This document shows positions 11,201 through 14,200 of a stretch of 64,000 nt of DNA, piece after piece. Within the stretch, counting starts at the first letter, position 1, and every line of letters starts with the position of its first letter. Source of the DNA: Escherichia coli. Its GTDB lineage: Bacteria; Pseudomonadota; Gammaproteobacteria; Enterobacterales; Enterobacteriaceae. Made by a program: the position numbers. The stretch lies in assembly GCF_036507355.1 (NCBI RefSeq), contig NZ_AP027877.1. One strand, 5' to 3'.

Positions 11201-14200
11201 TCATTGCGATAGAAGGGATAACGCTGATCATCCGTGCGGTCATCGCCTGATGCGACGCTGACGCGTCTTATCATGCCTACAAAATATGCCCGAATCGTAG
11301 GCCAGATAAGGCGCTTGCGCCGCATCCGGCATATAGCCGAGTAGAGGCAAAATTACTCTTCCCGGCCTTTACCCATACTTTTTTGGTCTTCATCCGGATA
11401 GTGTTTTTTTAGATATTCCAGGACGTTTTTATTGACCTTATGTTGGGTATACACCCACCCTTTCCAGTAATCAGGCTGGTCCAGGTAAACTTCTGGCGGA
11501 ATGGTGAAATCAGAAAGCGTTAACCATTCGGCTAACAGATCGGGGTTTCGTTTCTGTATCAACTGCAACAGCATAATCAGCGACATGGCAGAGGCAGGAG
11601 CCGTACTATCGCCGCTTAAATACTTCCACACTGTCGACCGGTTCGAACGAAAAAGGATCGGTAGCAATGCCCGGTCCAGATTCATTTCATTAAAAATCTT
11701 CTCAAATTCATTCATTTAAATTTTCCTGCCTTGCGTAAACCTCTTAAAAATTGAGATTTATCAAAGAAACGCATTTTAGCACACATCAGGAACCGCTTCA
11801 CGTTTAGTCCAGAAACGGAATTTATTTCGCTTATCAAAACAAGTCGTTACTCTTCTTTACGCTAAAATAGCATAAAATGACTTTCAAAATTATTTATTAA
11901 AGAAACGGATTAAATTTCTTATAGTCAGTGTTTGCGCTTACACAGGACAAAAATGCGCTTTACATCACACAAATGGCGGCGTAGATTTCGATCATATTGC
12001 AACGAAAATTAATTCTTATAGAAGCGCAAGAAGTTTCTATAAGAAACCAAAATAAACTTAATTTGATCGAGAAAAAATAAATGAAATCTGTAAAGTTGTC
12101 TTTACGGGCAGTCGTTGTTGCTACCATTGTGAGCCCATCTGCTTTTGCAGATGATACGGTTGAAGCGGCAGCGACAGAACTGACAGCGATTCACCCAGGT
12201 ATGTCTCATGATGAAATCGATCAAAAAATCAATCGCTTCATGATTCGGACAGGTAATACAGAAGCCGCGCAAGATTACCTGTTTTCTCATGGATATATGG
12301 ACCCACAGACAGGCGATAATATTTACCCCACCAGTACAGCCGTACAGACTGACAGCACTGTCACCGATAAAAACCAGGCAGATCGCGACGCGGCGCAAGA
12401 TACCGCCATTCAGAATGCACACAATATCGCAAGCATTGCGGCGGCAAATGCAGATGACGCCAAAAAAGCGCTTACCACTGCGCAATCTGCAATTGATGCG
12501 AACAAGGGAGCTATTGCTGATACTCAGAAAGATGTCGCAGATGTTAAAGCAAGTGCAGATCATGCCAACGAGAACGCTAATACCGCGTTGATGAATGGCC
12601 AGAAACTTTCCGGTGTCGTCAGCGACAACAAAAACCAGATTGAAAAAAACAGTACGGCGATTACCGAACAGCAGGAACAAATCACTGCCACGCAAAAAAC
12701 CGTTGCCGCCACTGCTGATGCGCAACAATCACAGTCTGAAGCCCAACAAACGCAGATTACAGAGCAACAGAAGCAGATCGCAGCCACAGAAAAAACGGTC
12801 GCTGCAATCGGCGATCCCCAGTCAACTGCGCATTATCAAAAGATGATTAATGCCAAACTGACAGCGCAAAATGAAGCCAATGAACGTTCAACCGCTGATC
12901 AGGGGCAGAGAATTAATGACCTGGCTTCCAATGTCGCGACGCAACAGCAAATCGATAGCGTGCAATACGGTGAACAAATTCGAAACCTTGCGCAAGACTC
13001 GGTCCAAACGCTCCAGGAGTTAACAAACACGCAAAAACGTGTTGCAGATAACAGCCAGCAAATCAATTCGCTCAATAACAACTTCAGTTCGTTGAAACAC
13101 GAAGTGGAAGATAACCGTAAAGAGGCTAATGCGGGTATTGCGTCAGCCGTCGCTATTGCTTCACAGCCTCAAGTTAAGACAGGTGATTTTATGATGGTGT
13201 CTGCCGGGGCGGGTACATTCAACAATGAATCTGCGGTATCTGTCGGTGCTTCGTTTAATGCTGGAATTCATACGGTAATTAAAGCGGGAGTCTCTGCGGA
13301 TACACAATCTGATTTCGGTGCGGGTGTCGGCGTGGGGTATTCGTTCTAATTTTAATAGCAATTTCTTATTCGCAATATTCCGCAGTTTATTTAAGGTTAA
13401 CAATGATGAATAGCTCCATTAAATCCTTTTCCCTGCTGGCTGTTATATTACTGGCTGGCTGTAGTTCACCCGCTTCCCGCATCGCAGATTGCCAGGCGCA
13501 GGGCGTCAGCCATGACACCTGTTATCTCGCAGAACAGCAGCGCCAGACGGCTATTTTAAGTGCTTCCGAAGAGCAGGCATTTAAAAATGCAGAAGCCGCA
13601 CAACATGCCCAGGCGGCAAAGAAAGCCATTTATAAAGGATTTGGCATGACCTTTAGAATGAGCAGTAAAAACTTTGCTTATCTCAATGATTCATTATGTG
13701 CAATTGATGAAAACAATAAAGATGCCACTGTTTATCAGTCAGGTCTGTATAACGTCATTGTTTATCATCACACAGGAAAAGTCGCCTTAATGAAAGAAGG
13801 CCAGTTCGTGGGTTATTTAAAATGAAGGAGCAAAGAAAAATACCCCTGACGCATATTATGATTATCGGTGCGTTTATTTTTGCCTTCTTGCAAGTAGTAT
13901 TATTAGCCTCCCTGGTTCACGCTGTGAATGTTAACAACGAAATCCAGGAAGGCTTATTTCAGTCGGGGCGCATTATGGTAGAAAGTTTGCAGCATATTCT
14001 TTCGGTGCAAACGGGGATTAACTGATTTTCACCCCGCCCGATGATGACAGCAGCCGGAGAGATTTTCGATAATCGGGCAGTCGGCGCTGTCATCACCGGG
14101 GCAGGCATTCGCCAGCGCCAGTAGCTGGTTGCGCATAGATTGCAGTTCTTCGATATGCCGTTCGATCTCCGCCACCTTCTCCAGCGTACGACGTTTGACG

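Follow-up and report, generated by a model that had tools for sequence, protein, structure and literature searches.

O-island 29 between ybbJ and cueR of Escherichia coli: the gene published as gmrA is predicted to encode a headless trimeric autotransporter

What separates ybbJ from cueR in many strains of Escherichia coli, and what kind of protein does the main gene found there encode? This question is raised by a 64,000-nucleotide stretch of DNA (contig NZ_AP027877.1 of RefSeq assembly GCF_036507355.1; called the window here, at its full length), in which an island at 11251-14028 lies between the two genes. The main gene of this island has the published name gmrA. The window is E. coli, as its fetA-qmcA-ybbJ stretch reaches 99.3% identity to complete E. 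coli genomes. In K-12 MG1655, cueR has its end at 514400 and ybbJ its start at 514401, with stop codons that abut and zero intergenic bases. Because these stop codons abut in K-12, the limits of the insert are exactly 11251-14028, which gives 2,778 bp between the ybbJ and cueR stop codons. The GC content of the island is 43.8%, compared to 55.1% for the window. A preliminary description, made from the sequence alone, had placed a ~2.8 kb AT-rich island between these two genes, given there as neighbours in K-12. This was borne out to the base, and no insert is present at the junction in MG1655. The coordinates of all four open reading frames (ORFs) were exactly as described, and the anatomy of a YadA-anchored gene, a lipoprotein, a coupled one-helix membrane protein, and a divergent small ORF was right.

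The island is O-island 29 (OI-29) of O157:H7, or S-loop 43 of Sakai. It is catalogued and common, and not new. The same gene order at the same junction is found in O157:H7, O145:H28, avian pathogenic E. coli (APEC) O1, and many other strains. OI-29 was reported as 2,643 bp with the genes z0638, z0639 (gmrA), and z0640 (Yang et al. 2018, PMC5826968). In Sakai, ECs0546 is the lipoprotein gene and ECs0548 the "adhesin", alongside ECs0549, and ECs0548 was entered on S-loop 43 as a "Saa-like protein" (Ogura et al. 2007). PGAP calls the main gene a YadA-family autotransporter; "YadA family autotransporter adhesin" and "Saa-like protein" are other labels in use. The preliminary description held that the module matched none of UpaG, EhaG, Saa, and Eib. 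It is indeed none of these, but it is not an unknown module either, as OI-29/S-loop 43 was already annotated. The segment with the lipoprotein gene and the small ORF was present in 1,416 of 5,426 complete E. coli genomes (~26%) and was chromosomal in all of them.

The ybbJ|cueR junction and the four ORFs of the EDL933 and Sakai OI-29 have the same order as in the window. The DNA of the lipoprotein gene and the small ORF is ~97% identical between O157:H7 and the window, and the anchor of the autotransporter is nearly identical. The alleles differ in the rest of this protein: O157:H7 has a 338-aa autotransporter with no stalk module, whereas the window has a 422-aa protein with one module, and the two are 66% identical overall. 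The nearest allele in a complete genome is the 436-aa protein of O145:H28, with 98% protein identity to that of the window. In O145:H28 strain RM12581, a further ORF of 407 aa (8956-10179 in locus L001) separates the small membrane protein gene from cueR; this ORF is absent from the window and had no match in NCBIfam. The fourth ORF of the island (13822-14025) is absent from the three-gene count of Yang et al. (2018) and is now a hypothetical protein in RefSeq. With high confidence, and on the basis of sequence, we take the island to be OI-29 and its main gene to be one predicted to encode a trimeric autotransporter.

The autotransporter gene (12081-13349, + strand) is the first of a three-gene operon and encodes 422 aa. 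The preliminary description had read a signal peptide, a coiled-coil stalk, and a YadA-type anchor in this protein, and all three were found. The Sec-type signal peptide is MKSVKLSLRAVVVATIVSPSAFA/DD (12081..12149, + strand; the slash marks cleavage). By inspection, its N-region is basic and its core hydrophobic, with A-F-A as the cleavage motif (AFA/DD), and it is kept in all alleles. A tip domain of ~50 aa follows (residues 24-75, 12150..12305, + strand), which is conserved in all alleles of 338-717 aa and matched no Pfam family. The stalk spans residues ~101-362 (12381..13166, + strand) and contains one copy of a ~115-aa module. It shows heptad periodicity with maxima at residues 113-196 and 281-364. 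Five core layers of the N@d type were seen, compared to 0.97 expected, and five were reached in only 2 of 2,000 shuffles. Ala, Gln, Thr, and Asn are abundant in the passenger, and Cys is absent.

The anchor occupies residues 363-422 and ends in GVGVGYSF (13167..13349 with the stop codon, + strand). The C-terminal 70 residues had been named as the place where a missing match to YadA-anchor profiles would speak against an autotransporter. The last 60 residues matched the whole YadA_anchor model of Pfam (PF03895, 1-60 of 60, E=2.6e-10), which was the sole significant domain in the protein. The anchor also matched, by sequence, the solved anchors of AtaA (1.6e-6), Hia, and YadA, and the alignment to AtaA and Hia starts in the helix ahead of the anchor. 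The last 56 residues show the period-2 hydrophobic alternation of beta-strands, and a C-terminal aromatic residue is present in every allele. No head, neck, or other adhesin domain was found by Pfam at E<=10 in either the window protein or the O157 allele, and NCBIfam returned only coiled-coil noise (SMC) for the autotransporter.

In Escherichia and Shigella, the shortest allele has 338 aa and the longest 717. Alignment showed that this range is caused by 0, 1, 2, or 3 of the ~115-aa stalk modules together with smaller indels, while the signal peptide, the tip domain, and the last ~130 residues are near-constant. A conserved anchor with a modular, indel-rich passenger is as expected for a predicted surface fibre. 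Like YadA, Hia, and AtaA (type Vc), the OI-29 protein has a Sec signal, a stalk that runs into a four-strand anchor of ~60 residues, and an aromatic residue at the C-terminus. It differs from them in that no head, neck, or dictionary domain is detectable by Pfam, the tip is ~50 aa, and the signal peptide is a short one that lacks an extended region. It resembles Saa and Eib of Shiga-toxigenic E. coli in being short and stalk-dominated with a length set by repeat number, and ECs0548 was once "Saa-like". However, Saa is on a plasmid and Eib on a prophage, whereas the OI-29 gene is always chromosomal. A Saa-like or Eib-like identity was rejected, since tblastn against plasmids and phages gave similarity at the level of the anchor only, with no match to EibD or SadA stalk fragments. 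Two records of the plasmid collection were exceptions; they are ~4.9-Mb long and hence really chromosomes.

How does this anatomy fit the published function of GmrA? Deletion of gmrA or of the whole island was reported to lower motility and the expression of fliA, fliC, and motA, with the same motility phenotype in eight strains (Yang et al. 2018). A deletion of z0638, the lipoprotein gene, was also assayed for motility in that study. All three annotated genes were transcribed in Dulbecco's modified Eagle medium, at 20-96 reads per kilobase per million, and silent on HeLa-attached cells. The authors themselves granted that the regulation could be indirect, and later reviews carry on the transcription-factor assignment. 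In the literature that we searched, no paper was found that links gmrA with the YadA anchor.

The published primers were mapped on the O157:H7 locus. The arms used for the gmrA deletion exactly bracket the coding sequence labelled "YadA family autotransporter adhesin" (3736-4752 in locus L002), those for z0640 flank the 120-aa ORF, and those for z0638 flank the lipoprotein gene. The gmrA cloning primers start at ATGAAAACTGTAAACGTAGCTTTA, which encodes MKTVNVAL of the signal peptide, and the FLAG primer ends on the GVGYSF codons. It follows from the mapped deletion and cloning primers that GmrA is the OI-29 autotransporter. The window protein is 66% identical to the mapped allele and is encoded at the same locus. 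In the O157 GmrA allele, YadA_anchor is again the sole significant Pfam domain (E=2.6e-11). Pfam gave no significant DNA-binding domain in GmrA; TMF_DNA_bd reached E=0.16 in the O157 allele and 2.5 in the window protein, within the coiled coil. Our guess is that this weak coiled-coil match was the source of the published DNA-binding-domain claim. In the published binding assays, GmrA was tagged either with His at the N-terminus, before the signal peptide, or with FLAG on the terminal Phe, the latter with overexpression by isopropyl thiogalactoside (IPTG). Neither tagged form would be exported or assembled normally.

The second gene of the operon (13403-13825, + strand) encodes a 140-aa lipoprotein with the lipobox LLAG/CSS. 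The residue at +2 is Ser, for which the Lol sorting rule predicts a probable location in the outer membrane. Two cysteines, C30 and C40, are conserved. The predicted layout is a lipid anchor, a long polar helix, and a beta domain. The AlphaFold2 model shows a helical hairpin (23-32 and 37-69) and a confident 8-stranded barrel (73-140) with a predicted local distance difference test (pLDDT) score of ~90. A Foldseek search with this model gave nothing significant in the PDB, and its fold neighbours in AFDB were uncharacterised enterobacterial lipoproteins. A phmmer search against all PDB chains (E<=10) did not find SadB or YajI and gave only a chance match to a glycoside hydrolase. NCBIfam gave just a sub-cutoff match to TraV, located at the lipobox.

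The third gene (13822-14025, + strand) overlaps the lipoprotein stop codon by ATGA and encodes a 67-aa single-pass membrane protein, predicted to be N-in, with the basic residues K2, R5, and K6 followed by a ~23-residue hydrophobic stretch. The overlap suggests that its translation is coupled to that of the lipoprotein gene. Homologues with the same 4-nt overlap were found in Escherichia and Pseudocitrobacter, and in locus L014 the lipoprotein gene is followed by a comparable ORF for a one-helix protein of 53 aa. The third gene of Rahnella and Serratia encodes an unrelated soluble protein of ~70-80 aa. This conserved ORF of ~70-81 aa (MKK..TDQFKHLP.EQQ..CL...) stands directly after the lipoprotein gene, in place of the one-helix protein, in loci L026-L028, L032, and L035, whose hosts are Rahnella, Serratia, and one uncultured Enterobacterales genome. 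Except in Serratia (L032), its start shares 4 nt with the end of the lipoprotein gene, stop codon included. The product has no hydrophobic segment and no signal peptide.

Is this set of genes kept together outside of E. coli? A scan with the lipoprotein profile, with one genome per species, gave 49 loci, and the six-frame ORFs of these loci were then searched with the anchor, regulator, and small-protein profiles. About 28 species of Enterobacterales have a full-length homologue of the lipoprotein. A same-strand YadA-anchor gene lies upstream of it in 16 of these species, immediately so in 15 and ~1.9 kb away in Pantoea (L033). The divergent regulator gene is also present in several of these loci. 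Versions of the lipoprotein with the N-terminal domain only (~65 aa) were found in Buttiauxella, Aeromonas, and Pseudomonas. The linkage of the lipoprotein to the autotransporter is far beyond chance. It is not obligate, and since homologues of the lipoprotein occur alone, the lipoprotein is not an obligate partner of the autotransporter. These data make the lipoprotein a candidate partner of the autotransporter. Because the third gene differs between genera, the conserved core of the module consists of the regulator, the fibre, and the lipoprotein.

The surroundings of the module vary as well. In Pseudocitrobacter, Serratia, Symbiopectobacterium, and other Enterobacteriaceae (L009, L014, L019, L032, and L042), it lies directly upstream of qmcA, and in one of these loci fetA is on its other side. 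The Escherichia module is downstream of ybbJ, which is the same neighbourhood at another junction. This hints at a long association with the qmcA-ybbJ-cueR region and not at repeated random insertion. In Pseudocitrobacter faecalis (L006, CP174503.1), the genes for the lipoprotein and a 64-aa protein come after two autotransporter-like genes in tandem, which encode 633 aa and ~588-608 aa. Both tandem genes match the anchor profile, and the second has no Pfam match on record. A large serine recombinase adjoins this module and hints at a mobile form of it. In Serratia silvae (L032, 5297-6707), the homologues of the regulator and the lipoprotein point toward each other without an intervening autotransporter gene, and the soluble ~71-aa ORF comes next. 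The locus looks like a module after loss of the fibre gene.

The 120-aa ORF (11353-11715, - strand) is divergent to the autotransporter gene and belongs to a tiny family: a search of 1.84 billion proteins gave 34 representative clusters at E<=0.001. The preliminary description had noted a possible helix-turn-helix in it. The direct Pfam matches were below threshold (E=0.04-0.12) and comprised the helix-turn-helix part of MqsA, HTH_26, HTH_3, and HTH_31, all of the Cro/C1 type. Among 18 distant relatives found through the family profile, 8 matched HTH_3 at E<=0.001 (best 2.3e-9) and 6 matched HTH_31, and this transitive homology backs the earlier suggestion. Judged from these matches, the N-terminal ~60 residues probably form a Cro/C1-type helix-turn-helix. 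Alignment of the protein to MqsA with hhalign gave a low probability, and a profile search of the PDB found nothing. The AlphaFold2 model is all-helical with a pLDDT of 57; it was too uncertain and was not used. In Pseudocitrobacter, Rahnella, Yersinia, Ewingella, and other Enterobacteriaceae, too, a homologue and a YadA-anchor gene are divergent.

Between the two divergent genes is a control region (11716..12080) of 365 bp with 31.8% GC, in agreement with the ~365 bp AT-rich region described earlier. A consensus scan found a sigma-70-type promoter candidate for the autotransporter operon, TTTACA-17 nt-TAGATT (11959..11987, + strand). The promoter block GCTTTACATCACA...GCGTAGATT is conserved across genera in the matching intergenic regions of loci L006, L009, L013, and L014. 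Between this promoter and the start codon is a perfect palindrome, GTTTCTATAAGAAAC (12033..12047), which is a candidate operator, and degenerate copies of it are found at 11756-11770, 11802-11816, and 11892-11906. With up to 2 mismatches (<=2), the palindrome GTTTCT-N3-AGAAAC has six matches in the window, four of them inside the 365-bp region, and none of 100 shuffles reached 6 matches. Across 15 loci, its density was 6.5 per kb in the intergenic regions between regulator and autotransporter versus 0.05 per kb elsewhere, a contrast that AT-rich composition inflates somewhat. The motif is missing in lineages with regulators just ~20% identical, which is expected if specificity diverged.

The best explanation of the locus as a whole, to which we assign a probability of about 0.75, is OI-29 with a one-module headless autotransporter allele, a divergent regulator, and a lipoprotein and a small protein as partners. 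Several observations weigh against it. The helix-turn-helix call of the 120-aa protein is transitive (direct E=0.04-0.12, AlphaFold2 pLDDT 57), and the candidate operator is known as a sequence pattern only. About a dozen lipoprotein homologues, among them those of Klebsiella, Raoultella, Pluralibacter, and Erwinia, are orphans, and the one-helix protein encoded by the third gene is not kept across genera. Adherence to HeLa and Caco-2 cells was unchanged by deletion of OI-29 (Yang et al. 2018). The same study reported that GmrA bound the fliA promoter in an electrophoretic mobility shift assay, with a shift at 0-120 nM, and that enrichment for this promoter was 7.75-fold in chromatin immunoprecipitation with quantitative PCR. 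A gmrA plasmid complemented the motility defect, and K-12 became more motile with gmrA. Together with the deletion phenotype in eight strains, these binding, complementation, and motility results are the case for the published reading, in which GmrA of 338-422 aa is a cytoplasmic activator that binds the fliA promoter and its autotransporter features are vestigial or irrelevant. We consider this reading very improbable. The sole significant Pfam domain is YadA_anchor, and the nearest "DNA-binding" match is coiled-coil noise. The Sec signal, the outer-membrane barrel segment, and the C-terminal aromatic residue are kept in every allele, and alleles differ in the passenger by whole 115-aa modules, a pattern unlike that of a protein that binds specific DNA sequences. 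The tagged proteins in the binding assays are also forms that would not be exported or assembled normally. The loss of motility, its complementation, and its recurrence in eight strains may be real phenotypes. If GmrA does affect flagellar expression, it most likely does so indirectly.

If GmrA is an autotransporter, then what does the lipoprotein do? The preliminary description was reminded of SadA/SadB-type pairs, in which a lipoprotein helps export. One part of this comparison held: as with SadA/SadB and UpaG/EhaG, a trimeric autotransporter gene is beside a same-strand gene for a small lipoprotein. SadB is encoded upstream of sadA, has a polar coiled coil and a MATH-like domain, and sits in the inner membrane with Asp at +2 (Grin et al., PMC3953254). 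The other part did not hold. SadB homology was rejected, since the OI-29 lipoprotein has no sequence match to SadB or YajI and neither is among the fold matches listed. The comparison is thus no more than an analogy: the OI-29 lipoprotein gene is downstream of the adhesin gene, its product has Ser at +2, and orphan homologues exist. The loci also differ (mtl-lld compared to ybbJ-cueR), the OI-29 adhesin is ~3.5 times shorter, and the OI-29 module adds a small membrane protein and a divergent gene for a probable helix-turn-helix protein. It is conceivable, though we would not favour it, that the lipoprotein acts as a SadB-type export helper that engages three nascent chains in the periplasm and aids trimerisation and display. 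Its gene directly follows a same-strand YadA-anchor gene, a linkage seen in 16 of about 28 species, and its order of lipid anchor, helix, and beta domain parallels the lipid anchor, coiled coil, and beta domain of SadB, a likeness that is architectural at most. The sole global search for autotransporter helpers required a YadA head and found TpgA and SadB only (Dorison et al., bioRxiv 2026). Because of this requirement, headless fibres were outside its scope. Such a helper role is disfavoured by the different sequence and fold, the predicted outer-membrane location compared to the inner membrane for SadB, the reversed gene order, and the orphan homologues and 65-aa N-terminal-domain-only versions with no autotransporter nearby. 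The orphans in several genera would instead fit a function of the lipoprotein and the small protein apart from the autotransporter, for example as a periplasmic inhibitor or shield of the MliC/PliC type, with their adjacency due to co-transfer. This is unlikely, as there was no Pfam match to MliC and nothing significant in the PDB by Foldseek. Small 8-stranded barrels are also common, and hitch-hiking alone does not easily account for the repeated adjacency to autotransporters at different chromosomal sites.

Under the explanation we prefer, a fibre with candidate partners and its own regulator, the locus may work as follows. The 120-aa regulator would act on the candidate GTTTCT-N3-AGAAAC operators around the conserved promoter. 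The steps of export can be drawn from established type Vc biology: the Sec system would export the autotransporter, and three copies of the last ~60 residues would form a 12-stranded barrel, inserted by the beta-barrel assembly machinery (BAM) complex. The passenger would be threaded outward to form a coiled-coil fibre with a small conserved tip domain. At 0.148 nm for each of ~263 stalk residues, the fibre is estimated to be ~39 nm long, and gain or loss of the ~115-aa module would set this length across the alleles of 338-717 aa. The lipoprotein and the small protein may be accessory partners in the biogenesis, stability, or function of the fibre. A bolder proposal is that these two proteins are a third class of partner, unrelated to SadB and TpgA and dedicated to headless fibres of Enterobacterales, that the module has its own Cro/C1 regulator acting on GTTTCT-N3-AGAAAC, and that the transcription-factor role of GmrA was misassigned, with an effect on motility that is indirect via the surface fibre. 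We put this forward tentatively, as the odds are against all of it being right.

The edges of the island and its other contents are as follows. The ybbJ-proximal edge (11251..11340) consists of repeats of the repetitive extragenic palindrome/bacterial interspersed mosaic element (REP/BIME) type, with matches to unrelated loci over ~80 bp. These first ~80 bp are 83-89% identical to unrelated loci in 5,120 of the 5,426 genomes. Because the first ~90 bp are REP/BIME repeats, these 5,120 genomes "match" the island over just ~80 bp. Rfam gave sub-threshold matches to the REP-derived naRNA4 at 11211-11277 and 11300-11367, and these REP-related matches were the only RNA elements it returned for the island. 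Flanking direct repeats were looked for around the island as insertion scars and none were found. A phage or defence origin was rejected, since PHROGs gave just generic phage "adhesin/tail" anchors and PADLOC gave nothing meaningful. A 208-aa ORF antisense to the autotransporter gene (12102-12728, - strand) is most likely not a gene but a side effect of Ala/Gln-rich codon usage in the stalk.

Next to cueR is a type I secretion locus (14433-39107, - strand). It encodes an HlyD-family adaptor (14433-15608, - strand) and an ABC permease/ATPase (15605-17767, - strand). A 451-aa ORF (37752-39107, - strand) has the position and length of Sakai ECs_0540, an "outer membrane transport protein". These transport genes enclose a giant adhesin gene that is broken up into three ORFs, of 1,221, 2,781, and 2,590 aa (17771-37649, - strand). 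Its O145:H28 homologue is annotated as "BapA-related adhesin SiiEA, internal stop", and in strain TUM13936 the gene is intact at ~21.7-kb. APEC O1 carries one of the two islands without the other and, therefore, OI-29 is independent of the type I secretion island.

Two points are worth carrying forward. One is the clash between the sequence and the published function of GmrA, and the other is a conserved, uncharacterised module of a regulator, a headless fibre, and a lipoprotein. A gene cited in reviews as a flagellar transcription factor of enterohaemorrhagic E. coli bears every sequence hallmark of an outer-membrane fibre. If this reading is right, the fliA regulatory model of O157:H7 needs another look, and a widespread surface protein of E. 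coli would be without an assigned surface function. This predicted surface protein is encoded in about a quarter of complete E. coli genomes, including O157:H7, O145:H28, extraintestinal pathogenic E. coli, and APEC lineages. The module series of 338-717 aa is a natural set for testing stalk length against reach past the O-antigen or capsule. The set of regulator, fibre, and lipoprotein is a compact and testable system for asking whether short trimeric autotransporters use dedicated partners.

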